DNA of 64,000 nt from a virus. Lineage: Duplodnaviria; Heunggongvirae; Uroviricota; Caudoviricetes. The notes under the pieces are model-generated. The model ran no database searches and was not told where the DNA came from. It was given only the letters and a program-made list of their open reading frames with translations. The DNA lies in IMG/VR virus record IMGVR_UViG_3300028887_000001, positions 92,088-156,087 of that record; one strand, written 5' to 3'. Both the position numbers and the translations under genes were made by a program. How positions within the stretch are numbered: the first letter of the stretch is position 1; each line of letters begins with the position of its first letter. Below are positions 13,912-21,019 of this stretch, one piece after another.

Positions 13912-14414
13912 GATTTTATCTTTTTTTCGTATTTTTCTTCATTATATGCTTTTATAATTTCTTCGACATCATACCAATCTGGGTTGTCGTTGATGTTTTG
14001 TATAATACCATCAAATATGTTACCATCAACATCCAACCTTCCAGCTTGCCAACTACTTTGAATATCCATGCTAAACCAGCCACCGTCTTTTGTTCTTACA
14101 AACCAAAGATTGTGTTCATCATAATTTGGGCAAGAACATTCAACGAAATAATCTGTTTCTTCAGAATACAACCAATCATGACATGGCATTTCATTGTTAT
14201 GCCAGTGGTCATATAATGAGGTGTCAACAATAATATCATCTTCAGCACACCCATCTATGTATAATGGGAGTCTAAACATTATATTTTTTGCTTCTCCTGG
14301 AGTGATTACTCTCTCACACTTACAGATATAATGTCTACTTGGCGATGTTTTACCGTCATCAAAGAAGTGGTATAACTTGCCAACTTCTGGAACTGGTTTA
14401 AGATTGTTACTCAT
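13908..14414 (-). CDS. hypothetical protein
   Basis: 168-aa ORF, tightly packed. Confidence 0.8.
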   Translation of the reverse strand: MSNNLKPVPEVGKLYHFFDDGKTSPSRHYICKCERVITPGEAKNIMFRLPLYIDGCAEDDIIVDTSLYDHWHNNEMPCHDWLYSEETDYFVECSCPNYDEHNLWFVRTKDGGWFSMDIQSSWQAGRLDVDGNIFDGIIQNINDNPDWYDVEEIIKAYNEEKYEKKIKS

Positions 14415-14417
14415 AGT

Positions 14418-14723
14418 TTAATATGTTTGTTTTTCTAGTTCGTCATCCTCATCACAACATTTATCATCATATGCTGTTAAGCAATCATTGTATCCGGTCA
14501 TATAACCTCTTGTGTACATGAACTGCATAGCATCTTTAACTGCAACCATTAAATCACCACTCTTCTCGATGTCTGGGTGCTTCTTTACGAAATCATTGAA
14601 TGCGTTGTTAACACTCAAACAACATAGTTTCTTTCCCATAGTTTTTATTTTTCTTTCTGCAAAATTATAACAATTCTGACAAACTTCCAAATATGTTGGC
14701 ATAAAAGTTATATTTCTTAACAA
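14418..14723 (-). CDS. hypothetical protein
   Basis: 101-aa ORF; start uncertain (ATG at 14702 is an alternative). Confidence 0.65.
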   Translation of the reverse strand: MLRNITFMPTYLEVCQNCYNFAERKIKTMGKKLCCLSVNNAFNDFVKKHPDIEKSGDLMVAVKDAMQFMYTRGYMTGYNDCLTAYDDKCCDEDDELEKQTY

Positions 14724-14887
14724 TTTTTAACGATTAGTGTTCAAAAAATTCAGCAATGCCCTATACAGGAGGTGCGTTTTTTAATGAGTAACGGTAAGTT
14801 CTCATCCTGTAGTCTTTGGGCAATGCATAGTTGTAGTTCTATTTTAACCGAAGAAACCCACAACGTAATATCTCGGTACCGTGTTTG

Positions 14888-14960
14888 TACTCCCTGTTGG
14901 ATTCAAACCAACGACCCACAGATTAGAAATCTGTTGTTCTATTCACTGAACTAAGGGAGC
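14888..14960 (-). tRNA. trnR: tRNA-Arg (UCU)
   Basis: Cloverleaf: acceptor GCTCCCT/AGGGAGT, D-stem GTTC/GAAC, anticodon arm ACAGA-TTTCTAA-TCTGT, T-arm GTTGG-TTTGAAT-CCAAC; CCA not encoded. Confidence 0.92.
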
Positions 14961-14994
14961 ACACCCAATTAACTTCTCGCTAGAAGTTTCACTG

Positions 14995-15002
14995 CAAAGT
15001 TA
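14995..15002 (-). promoter_or_regulatory. Bacteroidota-type -7 promoter box upstream of the tRNA
   Basis: TAACTTTG followed by CA on the minus strand, 35 nt upstream of the tRNA. Confidence 0.7.
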
Positions 15003-15074
15003 CTAATAATTTCTCAATTAAACAACAATTTTGGAAGAAAATCCACAAAAATGTGCTATTAATCGACAAAATTG

Positions 15075-15521
15075 CTAAGCATCCATACTTTTAATCAACA
15101 AATTTGCCATTTCTTTAATCTTTTTATTTGTTGGTATCTTACCACCTCCGGTATAGTCTATGAGCAATTTTCTTAGTTCCTTTTCAAAATTAGTCAGTTC
15201 TGACATTTCCCTTTCAATTTGAGAAATCAAATCTTCTAATGTTCCGACTTTTCCGAAGAAGCATTTATTCTGACTATTCTCTATCTCTTCACGTTCTTCT
15301 TTATCTATGATTACAATTTTGCCATCTATATTTGAGCATATAAATCCCTGGTCACACAATGATTTCGAAATTGCGCTAAACAACTCACAATTGATATTTA
15401 CTAAAGGCCCTCTCATGTTTTTCAATGAGTTCAAGATTGATTCTATAAACCTTAATACGTCAAAACTTCTTTCCATGATAGATATTTTCGTCAACCGTAT
15501 TATTTCACAAATGCCATACAA
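15075..15521 (-). CDS. hypothetical protein
   Basis: 148-aa ORF; true start probably the downstream MERSF. Confidence 0.7.
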   Translation of the reverse strand: MYGICEIIRLTKISIMERSFDVLRFIESILNSLKNMRGPLVNINCELFSAISKSLCDQGFICSNIDGKIVIIDKEEREEIENSQNKCFFGKVGTLEDLISQIEREMSELTNFEKELRKLLIDYTGGGKIPTNKKIKEMANLLIKSMDA

Positions 15522-15549
15522 ATCTTTAGTTTGTTGGTGGTTCGCTGTT

Positions 15550-15942
15550 TTAATTGTTGCTTATTGGTTTATATCCTATAATACTTGGGTATATTCCACA
15601 TATTGGAAACGACATTCCTCTTGTTGTAATAATATATGTTGAATCATTTTTCATTGCCAGGCATTCTGGGTGTGCGTTAATTCCACTTGTTTCTACTCGA
15701 TAAGAGCCTTTGTCTGTTGTTACTATATAATAAACAGTAGTGTGAAATCCGTCAGAATTTCCACTTCTATCTTCGACCTTATCAATTGAAATGACTTTAC
15801 ATTTATTTGTTTGTTCATTCATTAGTTTTGCGGGTCCGTAGAAAAACACGCATCCTATTGCGCAAATTGAAATAATAATGGTTGTCATGCAAGATGTTGA
15901 TTTATGCATGATTTTTTTGATTTTGTCTTCTAATTTATACAT
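15550..15942 (-). CDS. membrane-anchored hypothetical protein
   Basis: 130 aa with an N-terminal hydrophobic segment. Confidence 0.75.
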   Translation of the reverse strand: MYKLEDKIKKIMHKSTSCMTTIIISICAIGCVFFYGPAKLMNEQTNKCKVISIDKVEDRSGNSDGFHTTVYYIVTTDKGSYRVETSGINAHPECLAMKNDSTYIITTRGMSFPICGIYPSIIGYKPISNN

Positions 15943-15973
15943 AATTAATTCACTTTAATTGCTAAATCTGGTA

Positions 15974-15981
15974 CAAATATA
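15974..15981 (-). promoter_or_regulatory. Bacteroidota-type -7 promoter box
   Basis: TATATTTG on the minus strand in an intergenic gap upstream of 15942. Confidence 0.65.
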
Positions 15982-16013
15982 TGGCATTTTTAAAAAACAT
16001 GCAAGTAAATCGA

Positions 16014-16205
16014 TTAGGTCATTGTTTTAAAAGATTCTCCGAGCATGCGGCCAAGGGTATATCCGAACGCCATATATGATATTGTGCGTGTAAGGCATAA
16101 CCAAAGTGGCTCTTGATTAAACTTGTTACACTTATTATAAGCGTAGATTGTGCCTACCACACCAACAATGAATGCCAAGACACAGATGATAAAATAATAA
16201 ATCAT
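16014..16205 (-). CDS. small membrane protein
   Basis: 63 aa, hydrophobic. Confidence 0.7.
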   Translation of the reverse strand: MIYYFIICVLAFIVGVVGTIYAYNKCNKFNQEPLWLCLTRTISYMAFGYTLGRMLGESFKTMT

Positions 16206-16208
16206 AGC

Positions 16209-16475
16209 CTATTCCCCTTCTTTTTCTTTATTTAAGTTAGCGTATTTTGCAAAAATTGTTTCTTCAATATCAGGGAACTTGATATGCAGGAAATCTTCAA
16301 TCGTCTGAATCCTATTTACCTTATCAGCAATTCCGGTATCTGAAGTCCAAAAAATCAAACTTTCTGTATGAATTGAATCATCCATAGCTGCTAGATATTC
16401 ATCTCTTGATTGACTTGTTTTTTTACAGCTTGCCAATGTCAAAACACATAGAAATGATAAAAATATTCTATTCAT
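16209..16475 (-). CDS. putative lipoprotein
   Basis: MNRIFLSFLCVLTLASC lipobox-like signal. Confidence 0.7.
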   Translation of the reverse strand: MNRIFLSFLCVLTLASCKKTSQSRDEYLAAMDDSIHTESLIFWTSDTGIADKVNRIQTIEDFLHIKFPDIEETIFAKYANLNKEKEGE

Positions 16476-16490
16476 GTCTGTAATGCTATT

Positions 16491-16913
16491 TTACTTTAAT
16501 TGAATTATATCACTCCACCTTGTGGTTGGGTTTTTACTCTTAAAGTCGTGCTTGATGGCATTGGCAAATACATCGGCTTTTCCTTCGCCATTCTTCTTTG
16601 TATATTGCTGACTGCCTAACACTATCGTTTCTGTCCCGTTGACTTTGTTGATTCTGTCCATGACTGCATCCAGCCGCTTCATCTTCTCGAACTGCTCTGC
16701 GTTGTAGTCAAAGAGGTCAAGCTGCTGGGGAGAGTTGGGACCTATGCCCATAACTATGACACCTGCTTTCTTGTAGTGATAGCCCTGCCTGTAGATGCTC
16801 TCCAATACCTCTGATGCTGCTTTCACTATGTCGATGGTGCTGTTCGTCCCGACTGTCAGACGCTTCTCTTCATAGTTCCAGTACTGAGGCAGGTCTTCCG
16901 AAGAATTAAACAT
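16491..16913 (-). pseudogene. umuC: 5'-truncated UmuC (Y-family Pol V) fragment: little finger and DUF4113-like C-terminus
   Basis: EDLPQYW...YKKAGVI...QLDLFD...MDRIN...TTRWSDII matches UmuC C-terminal motifs; G+C 31/60 and 29/60 at 16681-16800 versus 19/60 at 16321-16380. Confidence 0.8.
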
Positions 16914-18561
16914 AGTCAAAAGTAGTCACACTACCTTTTATACATTCACTCCTTGCAACTTCTTGCAAGTTTCTTCGAAACGATAACAATACTTCTTTTA
17001 CCTTCTCACGTTTAAGTTTTCTCGGTTCAAAAGCACCATTATCAAGTTGTTTTAAGAGCTGTTCTCGTAACACGGTTACGAGCGCTCTGTTCCTTATATT
17101 CTTTGCAGCATTAAAGTCTGCATTATCCTTATATCCACATTCAATACATTCAAATGTCTCTTGGTTTGGTCTGTTTTCATCCTCAATACAGCCACATATA
17201 GGACACATCTTCGAGGTATAACTTGCTTGAACAGTTGACACCGCAATATCATACTTCCTTGCTATATGCTCAAACTCTTGCTTCAAGCTACTCAAACCAA
17301 GAAACTTTACCTTTCTATTGTAGTTTATATCATCATTATCTTTATCCTTAACGTAGCATTTACCAAATCCATTGTCAAGGTCTTCCATTACAATATGGCC
17401 AACACCTTGTTCTCTCAACGCCTTGCACATATTAGCAATAAGTTGTTGTTCAGACTTAACCATCTTGGATTTGAGTGTATCAAGTTTCTGTTGCTTACGT
17501 TTACCTACTTTATACTCTTTATTTCGTTCTTTCTGTTTATCTATTTCAAGGGATAACTTACAGAAATCATTGACGAGTTTTCTGTCATAATCGTAAGTGG
17601 TTTCATCTGATAAGCTGAATAAGTTGTGTTTACAATTGACATCAATACCTACCGTATTACCATTGACTTGAGGAATATATCTTTCTCCATCCTTGCATAA
17701 GTGAATACTTACTTGATGTTCTTTCTCATTGAATGTAATTGTGTATTCGTAATCAGGATTATTCTTTCTGTAATCCTTCATATTTCCGTGCCAACCTTTA
17801 TTAAAGGTGACTGGTATATCAAATGATTTTCTACCTTTACTTCTGCTGATACCACTGAGGCTGACAAATGAATTAATCTTTGAGCCAAACTTGCTGTTAT
17901 AATCAATTATTCTTGTTTTCCTACATCTACCACTGAATGTTAATGACTTGAATTCAATAGGGTATTCTGAATAGTGTTTAACAATACGTTTTCTTTTTGA
18001 CAAAGCAAGCTTAAATAAACGTTCAAATCCGTATTTCTCACAGCACCTTAGTATATTGTTATAGAACTCACGTTTATTTTCATCACAACTACTTATATTG
18101 TTATTGATATAGTCTATAATACTTTCATTACCGTATCTTGCAAGATATGTAAGACAGTTAGACAACGGTGTTTGTCTTTTATCAAGAATTACTTTCTTTA
18201 AGCCACCTTTCTTATGTTTCTTGGTATCACGTTTATAGAACTCAAAACCATTAAATACCCTTACTTCAAATGCAAGCTTACGCTGTATAGCATCAAATTT
18301 GTTTTGATAGCAAGTAAATACTTGTGTATATAGTTGTGCGTCAAATGAGCTTGTTATTACATTCTTGAAACGTTCTCTCATTACCTTTATGAATTGGAAC
18401 TTATTGTAATCAAGGTAATGTAATAAGTAGCTATTAACGTGCTGTGATACAGCATTTTTATGATTTTGAATAAGCACAGCAAAGTCGTATAACTCATCAT
18501 ATTTCTGACGAGTTAAATCCTTTGAATGGAATATCTTTGTGTACTTACTCTGTATAATCAT
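16906..18561 (-). mobile_element. tnpB: TnpB-family RNA-guided endonuclease gene (IS605/IS607-type), no tnpA
   Basis: 551 aa; RuvC-I GIDVN, RuvC-II VMEDL, zinc finger CPICG...CIECG, RuvC-III NADFNAAKNI. Confidence 0.9.
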
Positions 18562-18563
18562 AT

Positions 18564-18725
18564 TTAATCCTCCAAATTATCAACATCTTGGCTTGTATGC
18601 CCTAATAATTCTCTGTACAAAACAATATCATCTTCATTGAAAGATTCCTTACCTTTAAATTGTTCATACATATTTTTAAGCCAAGAAATGTCTCCATTTT
18701 CTCTTATTTTAATATCAATGTCCAT
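18564..18725 (-). CDS. 53-aa hypothetical protein
   Basis: Translated by hand (MDIDIKIRENG...DNLED); stops 2 nt before the tnpB ATG. Confidence 0.55.
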   Translation of the reverse strand: MDIDIKIRENGDISWLKNMYEQFKGKESFNEDDIVLYRELLGHTSQDVDNLED

Positions 18726-18840
18726 ATATGATTTTCATTTCCTCATTATCCCTTTCAAGTTTGCTAATCTTAGAAAAACAGTAGCCAAAACAACCACCGA
18801 TGATGACACTTACACCTACTATAAAAATAATCCAAGTCAT
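18715..18840 (-). CDS. 41-aa membrane peptide
   Basis: Translated by hand: MTWIIFIVGVSVIIGGCFGYCF... Confidence 0.55.
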   Translation of the reverse strand: MTWIIFIVGVSVIIGGCFGYCFSKISKLERDNEEMKIIYGH

Positions 18841-18853
18841 ATTTTTTTTTTAA

Positions 18854-19018
18854 TTAATTTTCAGCCCAAGCCAGTATTTCTCCATCCTTAACTATCGCAT
18901 AGGGGACTGTACATTCCTCCTTGCAGAAACAGAAACTACCCTCTTTAATGTTGTTGTGTTTACAACTAATGCAATCCATCATCTTCGGCTTGCATAATTT
19001 GCCTGTCTTTGTACCCAT
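18854..19018 (-). CDS. 54-aa Cys-rich peptide
   Basis: Translated by hand: MGTKTGKLCKPKMMDCISCKH...CFCKEEC... Confidence 0.6.
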   Translation of the reverse strand: MGTKTGKLCKPKMMDCISCKHNNIKEGSFCFCKEECTVPYAIVKDGEILAWAEN

Positions 19019-19019
19019 A

Positions 19020-19244
19020 TTATATTACCTCCACTTCAAATATTGTATAGTTGTTGCAGAGATAGCTGATGCCATCGTGATAATTAACGGTAGTTTCATC
19101 CGCCGATAGAATCTCGAAACAATCGTCATTAACGAGTCTATCGATTACTTCCTTTCTCCTCTCCTTCAGTGCGCCCTCATTATCAGAAACACATAATGGC
19201 CACCCATTACAGGCTAACACATACATTGTCTTTTTCATATTCAC
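19020..19244 (-). CDS. hypothetical protein
   Basis: 74-aa ORF just downstream of a promoter. Confidence 0.7.
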   Translation of the reverse strand: MNMKKTMYVLACNGWPLCVSDNEGALKERRKEVIDRLVNDDCFEILSADETTVNYHDGISYLCNNYTIFEVEVI

Positions 19245-19266
19245 TTCTATTTTAAGTTTGACGATG

Positions 19267-19298
19267 CAAATTTACAATATTTTTATAATCTCTCCAAA
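19267..19298 (-). promoter_or_regulatory. Bacteroidota-type housekeeping promoter
   Basis: TAAATTTG (19267-19274) with TTTG (19295-19298) and a 20-nt spacer. Confidence 0.75.
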
Positions 19299-19329
19299 TA
19301 TTCTATGTTAAAAAATGTTAAAAACACAA

Positions 19330-20940
19330 TTATTCTTCCAAAGACGGTATAAACGCCTCAGTTTCTATTCCATGTTCTTCCATTCCAACTCTAATGTCAT
19401 CGAATATATAACCACCAGTTGTTGGTGTCATATCTGGAATCCTTATGAAATAGAATTTCATATCCTTTGGTGATAATGTCACAACATCTGTTATGCTATT
19501 TGGAAGGGAACCATCTTCTTCAAACGCATCAATGTCTTCCTTGGTCAAATTATCCAATGCTTCCAAATATTTCTTGTTTTCTGCCTGGAATAATTCATCA
19601 GCCTCTCTCTTAATGGTTTCGTGGTACTCTTCAACCAAATCTTCCCATGGGATGTTACACTCATCAACAAATGGTGGCCTTTCACCAATCTTCTCCCAGA
19701 ATTCAATTTCCTTTCTTTCAGGTGTCATCAACGCCTCATACGTGTCTTGGTCTTCCGGCTTCATTGGGTAGCCACTAACCAACACAGATTCTTCTTTTGT
19801 CCAGAATTTCCTGTCCTTTGGGTTCTTGATTAATATCTCATCCCTTATTGATGGGTGGAAACATACCAACAACGGAGTTATTCTCTTATTGAACTGCTCA
19901 ATGTATTTCTCAACATTGTATTCCAAATCTGGAATGTCTGAACACAACAAGTCTTTCTCATTCTCAATGACATCAAATGGAACAAGTTTACAATTCAGTA
20001 TTACCTCATCCTCTTCCCTTACAATATAAGACTTTAATATCTCCTTTCTGTCTTTCGTTTTTAATGTCTTATACTCAATTCCACGCTTCTCACACTCTTT
20101 CTTTAATATGTTACTCTTAACCTTACCAACCAACTCAATCTCTTCATTTGGGTTGTCCGGATTCTTAACATATTGATGTGTTATTCTCTTTGCGTCAGTC
20201 TCACTCTTCTTTGAACCAGTATTGACATAATATATTGTATCACCTGGATTGACATTTAATCCCTCCCTTATCGCCAATTCATACCAAGCCTGTCTTGATT
20301 TCTTTGAACCACTCTTGGTTAATGTATTACAATCTTTCTTGTATTCATCAAGAGATTTCTTTATATTGCCCTTAGAAGCAATATCTCTAACAGATATGCG
20401 ATAATTGTAAATGTCATCGATATAGTTGTAATAAGATTCCAAGAATTCTTCTCCCTTACCATCAATCAACAGTTCAAGAGCATTTTCAAGATATTTCTGT
20501 AAATAACCAGACATCTTTCTTGATTTGATTGTATTACCAACCTTTTTAATTGAACCGTCTCGCTGCATACGACAACAATAGTTCTTTCTGGAGAAGTTAA
20601 TGCTGCTTTCTACATATTCATCAATCTCATTTGCAGACATGTTATTCTTTGAGCCGTTATAACACTTGTTCAAGAATAAATCATTAAACTCAGCAAAATC
20701 TGCTTCTGCATTAATATATGCCTTACCCTCTTTAACATACCTGTTCAAACCCTTTCCAATATAAGGGTTGTCCTCTGTGTATCTGAATTTCTCAGGTAAT
20801 TTGAAATCGAAGCCTATTCAGCCATCGGTGTTGCTAATTACGTTCATACCAAGGGCGTTAACTACCGTTCCGTCCAGTGATATGTCGTACACAACACCGA
20901 TGTTTTGGCTATCCTCCATTTTTTTAATGTTAATACTCAT
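19330..20940 (-). CDS. polB: Family-B DNA polymerase C-terminal half, fused to C-intein, with in-frame TGA at codon 41
   Basis: ATG at 20940 gives MSINIKK...VYDISLDGTVVNALGMNVISN|TDG*IGFDFKLPEKFRY..., in frame with the tracked 19330-20748 ORF (...KSRKMSGYLQKY... thumb region). Confidence 0.85.
20830..20940 (-). mobile_element. Split intein, C-terminal fragment (37 aa)
   Basis: Block F-like VYDISLDG and terminal ISN, followed by Thr+1 of TDG. Confidence 0.85.
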
Positions 20941-20965
20941 GTTTCTACATTTTAAAATTTCACTG

Positions 20966-20997
20966 CAAAAATACTATTATTATTTAATATATCCAAA
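20966..20997 (-). promoter_or_regulatory. Bacteroidota-type promoter for the polB C-half
   Basis: TATTTTTG (20966-20973) with TTTG (20994-20997) and a 20-nt spacer, 25 nt upstream of ATG 20940. Confidence 0.75.
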
Positions 20998-21019
20998 ATT
21001 TTTATGATATTTTTTTTTG

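Follow-up and report, generated by a model that had tools for sequence, protein, structure and literature searches.

Why would a phage genome carry an intact tnpB gene, separated from any transposase and running directly into a piece of bacterial umuC, and could that piece serve as its guide? The question is raised by a minus-strand locus in a stretch of 64,000 nucleotides (the window, meaning the whole stretch analysed), positions 92088-156087 of IMG/VR record IMGVR_UViG_3300028887_000001. The record, 348,671 bp long with direct terminal repeats and an overall GC content of 34.9%, is that of a jumbo phage. A preliminary description of the window had proposed that the phage captured a TnpB with a guide matching umuC, the SOS mutagenic polymerase gene, and could thereby cut or repress it. 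Comparison with relatives of the locus showed that the window copy is a remnant of an element of a known type, an IS607 insertion sequence (IS) with TnpB, and not a complete one, and that this IS607/TnpB family is resident and transposing in ~350-kb gut/rumen Bacteroidota jumbo phages. A stranded insertion scar, whose ribonucleoprotein (RNP) is probably still active, is the most economical reading of the locus and in our judgement a moderately probable one.

TnpB and its IS607 family

The TnpB protein matched Pfam Cas12f1-like_TNB (PF07282) above the cut-off (3.3e-16) and NCBIfam guided_TnpB (NF040570; 5.4e-24), the latter with 85.2 bits, short of the cut-off of 100 bits, and over TnpB residues 188-492 only. 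It also scored below the cut-off of NCBIfam IS607_TnpB and matched PHROG transposase families. Judged by these profile scores, the protein is a divergent branch relative to the guided_TnpB family. The RuvC motifs GIDVN (D307), MEDLD (E393) and NADFN (D482) and the zinc-finger motifs CPICG453 and CIECG472 line up with the catalytic motifs of Cas12f and TnpB structures. Among 57 family representatives (25-62% identity), D307, E393, C453, C456 and C472 are invariant and D482 and C475 are conserved in at least 90%, in agreement with the intact RuvC acids and zinc finger reported earlier. The AlphaFold2 model (predicted local distance difference test score, pLDDT, 91.6) has the Cas12/TnpB (WED-REC-RuvC-TNB) fold. 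Comparison of this model (m1890d3f570c8) by VIA-align gave CasLambda/Cas12l as the best match (Z 21.0, 469 of 551 residues aligned), with Z ~16 for Cas12f and Z 15.0 for both ISDra2 TnpB (8h1j) and ISFba1 TnpB (8iaz). The gene is single-copy in the phage genome, and its gene-wide ratio of non-synonymous to synonymous substitution rates (dN/dS) against relatives was 0.07-0.11. At E<=1e-30 the family comprised 146 clusters (50% identity), most of 510-600 amino acids (aa).

For the definition of the element, 19 viral and 80 metagenomic loci with TnpBs 72-100% identical to that of the window were compared. Every one of these resembles the window from the ATG (18561) as far as 16897, where ...TAA-TTCTTCGGA has its last base, and not beyond. 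The right end of the element is thus located at TTCTTCGG(A), where it had been put before, and is shared by ~100 copies. Beyond it, 75 distinct right flanks were found across the family. Nearly all are AT-rich phage genes, including those of a methyltransferase, T5orf172-like proteins, a patatin and a CCA-adding enzyme, and each insertion has the same orientation as the gene beside it; the umuC copy is the only one of the 75 with a host-like flank, none of the other 74 looking host-derived.

Many relatives encode, upstream of tnpB, a protein of 205-216 aa with an N-terminal MerR-type helix-turn-helix (HTH) and a Resolvase catalytic domain (in L008, Pfam Resolvase with 5e-22 plus MerR/HTH_17). 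A TnpA of this build is the hallmark of IS607. A conserved open reading frame (ORF) of 75 aa, orf75, is also carried by the relatives, and in one subfamily two small ORFs lie between tnpA and tnpB. Among the 50 insertions with enough upstream DNA, tnpA was full in 16, partial in eight and absent in 26, so that solo tnpB copies are common in the family. The left junction reads (A/G)T-GGGA followed by the conserved left end, with T-GGGA in ~20 of 25 full copies, and the right junction in most copies is TTCTTC-GGA. IS607 elements recombine at GG dinucleotides, and TGGG is both the target motif and the target-adjacent motif (TAM) of CboIStron (bioRxiv 10.1101/2023.11.20.567912), while ISXfa1 uses a GGG TAM and has an RNA scaffold that includes a fixed right-flanking nucleotide (PMC10711439). 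The TGGGA and TTCTTC-GGA junctions of the family fit both the published GG-core recombination and the TGGG/GGG TAMs.

Identity was 85-97% throughout the best 120 matches of the protein search, and their contigs measured up to 370 kb. A search of bacterial and archaeal genomes (one per species, 185,579 species) yielded one close match only, L037 (JBGVNW010000068.1, 360,293 bp), from a 'Bacilli bacterium' metagenome-assembled genome (MAG), which, being as large as the phage genomes of this kind, looks like a jumbo-phage genome binned as bacterial. With ~100 loci, 75 flanks and this lone match on a 360-kb contig, the family lives in jumbo phages, and TnpB was therefore not captured from bacteria. 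The direction of capture proposed earlier has to be reversed: the TnpB family is phage-resident and it is the umuC piece, with a GC content of 41-49% against 35% for the phage, that is foreign DNA. The family (L002-L019, L037, L039-L118; TnpB of 545-551 aa) is extremely abundant, and several contigs carry two or three copies. The right end of copies holds TTG ACT ATG TTT AAT TCT TCG GA (16911-16924 in the window), of which the ATG reads outward from the element, is replaced by ATA in about half of the copies and has a TAnnTTTG box (TACTTTTG) just upstream. The ORFs that it opens into the interrupted gene have 518 codons in L012, 237 in L016 and 135 in the window.

Upstream of tnpB, IS homology in the window reaches only 195 nt, with the breakpoint at ~18756. 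Positions 18756-18562 showed 92% identity to the interior of L064, and 18747-18563 showed 89% to L004/L005. The copy has lost its left end, orf75, tnpA and the greater part of orf~105. No left-end motif was found upstream of the IS breakpoint in the window and no resolvase (tnpA) domain in the whole 348,671-bp phage, which extends the earlier statement that tnpA is lacking. With the left end and tnpA lost and no TnpA supplied in trans by the genome, the element is immobile, and it cannot home because the left homology arm is gone. The ORF 2 nt before the tnpB ATG had been described as phage-like; the spacing was correct, but this 53-aa ORF is IS cargo found between tnpA and tnpB in L004 and L064 and not a gene of the phage itself. 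The left breakpoint itself lies inside a cargo ORF, whose last eight codons (EEMKIIYGH*) are fused in frame to an unrelated 33-aa N-terminus with a transmembrane helix, giving a 41-aa ORF (18713-18838, minus strand) that overlaps the start of the 53-aa ORF.

The umuC fragment and the predicted guide

Past the tnpB stop the minus strand reads TTCTTCGGAAGACCTGCCTCAGTACTGG, i.e. TTCTTCGGAAGACCTGCC..., and this direct reading reproduces the TTCTTC-GG followed by umuC similarity that first drew attention to the locus. Window positions 16904-16501 showed 93.1% DNA identity to the intact umuC gene of L023 and 91.4% to those of L021 and L022 (431-434 aa), so the umuC origin of the flank was borne out by comparison with genomes. 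The fragment protein is 96-99% identical to L021-L023 and ~87% to Prevotella sp. MAG proteins, and a 142-aa ORF matched IMS_C, DUF4113 and positions 302-421 of 422 of the UmuC model. Homology extends through the natural stop codon, the final five codons differing synonymously only. The GC content of the piece is 41-49%, against 30-35% in the neighbouring sequence, and its dN and dS relative to the closest allele are 0.0125 and 0.41. Among the substitutions specific to it, GC->AT changes outnumber the reverse by 9 to 2, and all but two conservative ones are silent. The whole phage contains neither an IMS catalytic domain nor a Peptidase_S24 domain (umuD), in line with the absence of a umuC 5' part on the other side of tnpB.

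At the breakpoint the intact genes read ...CTCTTCAGGG/AAGACCTGCC... (TCTTCAGGG/AAGACC) and the phage ...AATTCTTCGG/AAGACCTGCC... (TTCTTCGG/AAGACC), the pair predicted by insertion at the GG of AGGGA. 'Transduction' of the flank by TnpA via a downstream GG was considered and rejected, the right boundary of umuC (...AAGTAA/AATAGC...) being without GG. A search of IMG/VR revealed no other viral contig with the tnpB-umuC junction or the umuC site, and no other MFNSSE-UmuC fusion protein is on record, the short UmuC matches being ordinary gene fragments with internal starts. A metagenomic contig, L098 (Ga0265298_10257555, 1,654 nt), is 100% identical to the window over 1,130 nt across the junction, then continues with a different umuC allele (12 differences in 108 nt) and finally with unrelated DNA. 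It is either a chimeric assembly or a recombinant. Since the allele and then the sequence switch, and its tnpB shows no divergence, it was rejected as an independent second context for the junction and is useless for a selection test. The tail of L098, in which AT-rich intergenic sequence leads into the beginning of a gene for a signal-peptide protein, gave no Pfam match.

For the RNA partner, the last 170 nt of 61 distinct copies were aligned and folded with RNAalifold. The consensus fold comprises 41 pairs in 7 helices, 11 of the pairs with compensatory changes; one hairpin alternates between UA and CG in 33 and 25 copies and between GC and AU in 32 and 25. Paired cells amounted to 97.2%, compared with 37-55% with slid partners, and doubly changed cells to 93, compared with 9-16 in the slid controls; the observed covariation was reached by none of 500 shuffles. 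The terminal UUCUUCGGA (16905-16897) pairs with UUCGAAGAA ~90 nt upstream, and all stems of the consensus are kept in the window. An overlapping RNA would be expected to depress dS, which is 0.12-0.46 over the final 57 tnpB codons and 0.3-1.1 in the core. No Rfam family was found at 15500-19500 (E<=1), the known omegaRNA models not covering this scaffold. From sequence, both TnpB and the omegaRNA look fully functional.

As the conserved fold ends in UUCUUCGGA, the GGA would belong to the scaffold, as in ISXfa1, and the guide would start at 16896. The right end of the element and the conserved predicted fold both end at TTCTTCGG(A), which points to umuC as the guide source, as had been supposed. 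The guide 20-mer has no second site in the phage genome with up to 3 mismatches allowed, and the phage right end reads TCGGA (CGG, not GGG), so that no self-targeting is expected. In L021-L023 the first 30 nt beyond the scaffold match at 30 of 30 positions, directly after CAGGGA. The GGG at this target agrees with the left-junction motif of the family and with published IS607 TAMs; the base before it is A, which is also found in L010, while T occupies this position in ~20 of 25 family junctions. The chromosomal umuC of Prevotella sp. (L119/L120, next to trmD) reads CGCGA with one mismatch in the first 20 nt, and L121 and six viral-contig alleles read CGTGA or CGCGA with 2-4 mismatches there. 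A TAM beside the match, looked for on the basis of the preliminary description, is thus found in part: GGG and a perfect match occur together in L021-L023 only, and the named Prevotella chromosomal allele has neither. Alleles of umuC other than the L021-L023 type would probably escape cutting.

In L021, L121 and L123, which hold the umuDC alleles nearest to the fragment of the phage, the surroundings are alike and contain head genes of phages. The neighbourhood in L123, classified as viral in IMG/VR, includes a head-maturation protease (phrog_94, 4.5e-15), and that in L021 a weak large-terminase match. Umu genes of the target type (umuDC) are probably prophage cargo in Prevotella-type genomes. 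In contrast, the umuDC of L119/L120 is chromosomal and stands beside trmD.

Table 1. Features of the tnpB/umuC locus, in window coordinates.
Feature	Position	Strand	Basis
umuC 3' fragment, 140-aa ORF from the ATG of the IS right end, with QLDLF clamp-binding motif and DUF4113	16491..16913	-	umuC homology 406 bp; GC 41-45%, ~32% in neighbouring sequence
Predicted 20-nt guide AGACCTGCCTCAGTACTGGA	16877..16896	-	first bases past the conserved scaffold
Right-end junction TTCTTC-GG-A: IS607 GG core and fixed right-flanking nucleotide	16897..16905	-	where similarity of the relatives ends
Predicted omegaRNA scaffold, several stems, within the tnpB 3' end	16897..17090	-	RNAalifold consensus fold
tnpB, 551 aa, intact RuvC triad and CxxC...CxxC zinc finger	16906..18561	-	Pfam/NCBIfam profiles, motifs, AlphaFold2
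Leftmost surviving IS part: last 8 cargo-ORF codons and whole 53-aa cargo ORF (18564-18725)	18562..18756	-	similarity to L064, L004/L005
Candidate promoter (TTTG-N20-TAAATTTG)	19267..19298	-	pattern scan, Bacteroidota-type consensus match only

The locus lies in a minus-strand gene run downstream of a split polB gene. The promoter-driven operon noted earlier is in keeping with the candidate promoter, a consensus match only, after which small ORFs, tnpB and the umuC fragment follow in this order. Past the umuC stop codon, the DNA is AT-rich phage sequence opening a small lipoprotein gene. This 88-aa ORF (16209-16475, minus strand) starts 15 nt past the stop codon, and its N-terminus, MNRIFLSFLCVLTLASC, has a lipoprotein signal and lipobox; it is without a family match. 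Megablast of the region against the GenBank phage collection gave no match. Comparison with an isogenic empty site in related phages failed, as in the 13 loci with the neighbouring polB C-half gene all sequence downstream of that gene is non-homologous.

Origin of the locus and competing explanations

The reading as a stranded insertion scar is the most economical because the umuC-type flank occurs in one lineage only among 75 flanks and no other viral contig has the junction. According to it, the IS607 element, composed of orf75, tnpA, small cargo ORFs, tnpB and omegaRNA, moves in jumbo phages, and one copy would have inserted into a umuC of Prevotella type, probably carried by a prophage, at a GG within its ...TTCAGGGAAGACC... 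sequence. The phage itself now has a block of just 2.27 kb, in which the final 1.86 kb of the IS (18756-16897) is followed by the final 406 bp of umuC (16896-16491). Two routes fit the data alike. Either a umuDC captured by the phage took up the IS, and umuD, the front of umuC, the left end and tnpA were then lost in a single deletion, or in the course of an infection the IS moved into a umuC of the host or of a prophage, and the phage then regained the block by recombination. Expression from the upstream promoter would probably let TnpB and omegaRNA cut any co-resident intact umuC that reads (A/T)GGGA followed by AGACCTGCCTCAGTACTGGA.

TnpB normally cuts the empty donor site, and its guide is the DNA beyond the right end. 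The guide is thus umuC by descent, and a match to the interrupted gene, together with a TAM restored in the allele that lacks the insertion, is the default for any TnpB element; being automatic, it is by itself no evidence for a selected anti-umuC function. What is unusual in the window copy is that its flank comes from another genome and that everything needed for moving or homing is lost. Of the earlier suggestion that umuC could be cut or repressed, cutting is plausible and repression is unlikely, the nuclease site being intact. The data establish the element boundaries, the family, the computed RNA fold, the source of the flank and the GGG at the target. That the omegaRNA is produced, that (T)GGG(A) acts as its TAM, that cleavage takes place and that no adaptive role has been selected is what we infer from these data.

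Several observations weigh against a mere scar. TnpB and the omegaRNA show no decay although the element is immobile. The lean towards GC->AT changes and the mostly silent changes in umuC hint at a time of residence in the AT-rich phage during which tnpB stayed open, a weak argument as only ~1.5 stop codons would be expected in tnpB if it were unconstrained. Both junctions create in-frame ORFs (the transmembrane fusion on the left, the UmuC C-terminal fusion on the right) in a promoter-led operon, which is tidier than expected of a raw scar. Finally, a plausible TAM with a perfect target exists in real alleles (L021-L023).

These points lend some weight to an explanation that we regard as unlikely and that sharpens the earlier proposal: an exapted single-guide nuclease, in which the immobilised TnpB has been kept to cut umuC. 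Such a one-spacer 'proto-CRISPR' would serve in conflict between elements or in taking over the host. Its target could be the gene of the mutagenic SOS polymerase in the host, but a prophage or other mobile element with umuDC residing there is the more plausible one, for which the alleles beside phage head genes (L021, L121, L123) could speak. The active site and predicted omegaRNA are intact, the promoter-led operon suggests expression (from its consensus match), and the 30/30 match stands next to CAGGGA. The phage would be spared, the guide having no second match in it and the right end carrying CGG. Phage-borne TnpB derivatives aimed at host genes have a precedent in TldR targeting fliC. 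However, a guide matching the insertion site comes automatically with any TnpB element, a single host-like flank among 75 does not make a family-wide strategy, and the junction is confined to one phage lineage. The Prevotella chromosomal and six viral-contig alleles have CGCGA or CGTGA in place of GGG, with 1-4 mismatches in the first 20 nt, and position -1 of the TAM is A at the target, compared with the usual T of the family junctions. No benefit to a phage from cutting umuC is known. Somewhat more doubtful again is a virulent jumbo phage wielding TnpB as a one-guide weapon that would cleave umuDC-carrying prophages or the host chromosome during infection.

Selection could also act on the UmuC C-terminal peptide, with TnpB a mere neighbour that provides transcription and a start codon; this we hold to be improbable, and less credible than either proposal for the nuclease. 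With the beta-clamp motif QLDLF and a DUF4113 domain, the 140-aa protein might attach to the sliding clamp of the host or to partners of Pol V. Its ORF (16913-16491) joins the ATG in frame to the last 135 umuC codons and is open to the natural stop, but an in-frame junction arises by chance in one case of three. The dN of 0.0125 against a dS of 0.41, including a serine codon swap from TCC to AGT that keeps the residue, together with the synonymous, AT-leaning differences from bacterial alleles in the last five codons, would fit constraint on the peptide; low dN/dS may however stem from the bacterial donor lineage, the donor allele lying outside the sampled ones. Long read-out in the ATG frame is not clearly favoured family-wide (at least 80 open codons in 10, 5 and 9 flanks for the three frames), ATA replaces the ATG in about half of the copies, and the putative start is without a Shine-Dalgarno sequence. 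A chimeric metagenome assembly as the source of the umuC piece is very improbable: L098 shows that assemblers can cross over within shared sequence, yet it reproduces the junction itself, and the 406-bp piece, flanked by IS DNA and phage DNA, leads back into the phage as no chimeric contig would, stops exactly with the umuC stop codon and has its own substitutions with a GC->AT bias.

If the scar is taken as the ordinary reading, the locus is a clean, fully mapped example of an IS607 element stranded in a phage genome and dragging along a piece of another genome, and the umuC scar suggests that the jumbo phage has Prevotella-type hosts, or their prophages, as partners. If the nuclease has instead been kept for use, a phage-borne TnpB that is active as a nuclease and has a fixed guide directed at a gene outside the phage would be seen here for the first time. 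It would then represent a missing step between selfish TnpB homing and phage CRISPR-like warfare, a natural intermediate on the way from a selfish transposon nuclease to a phage-encoded CRISPR effector, in a family whose closest structural match is CasLambda. The locus lends itself to direct tests, as protein, RNA scaffold, guide, candidate TAM and natural target alleles are all defined. The IS607/TnpB family, abundant in jumbo phages and closest in fold to CasLambda, may merit more attention than this single copy.

Comparison with known systems

The closest likeness is to IS607 elements such as ISXfa1 and the Clostridium botulinum CboIStron. Relatives of the window copy carry the serine recombinase TnpA with MerR-HTH upstream of tnpB, there are no inverted repeats or target duplications, and a GG core is present at both family junctions, of which the window has only the right one. 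The left-flank motif of the family, TGGG(A), equals the published TGGG/GGG TAM, and the predicted omegaRNA overlaps the tnpB 3' end and includes the right-flanking nucleotide in its scaffold. On the other hand, the TnpB of the window, with 551 aa, exceeds typical TnpBs by ~150 aa, the family resides in jumbo phages and not in bacterial chromosomes, relatives bear extra small cargo ORFs, and the window copy is without left end and tnpA. With solo tnpB elements (IS1341-type) it shares a tnpB and omegaRNA without a transposase, as do 26 of the 50 family insertions. Mobile solo copies of the family (e.g. L014) keep the left end, whereas the window copy is cut inside the element and so could not be mobilised even in trans.

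TnpB-like nuclease-dead repressors (TldR) have lost the RuvC residues, and prophages use them to repress host fliC, acting at promoters. They resemble the window copy in being phage-borne, immobilised relatives of TnpB with a fixed guide that matches a gene outside the element. They differ in that the window triad D307/E393/D482 is intact and its match lies in a coding region, ~400 bp from the 3' end. Identity with TldR was ruled out by the intact RuvC triad.

CasLambda (Cas12l) is the best structural match to the TnpB model, and both are encoded by very large phages. No CRISPR repeat array was detected at 14000-21000, the lone direct repeat being a 2-copy family with 71% identity. In contrast to CasLambda, TnpB thus has no CRISPR array nearby, and its guide would come from a predicted omegaRNA at a transposon end. 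An ancestry of CasLambda at the sequence level was rejected, as the family profile scores Cas12f above CasLambda and the link is structural only. On the strength of the structural model, the IS607 TnpB family is a possible lead on the transposon ancestry of CasLambda.

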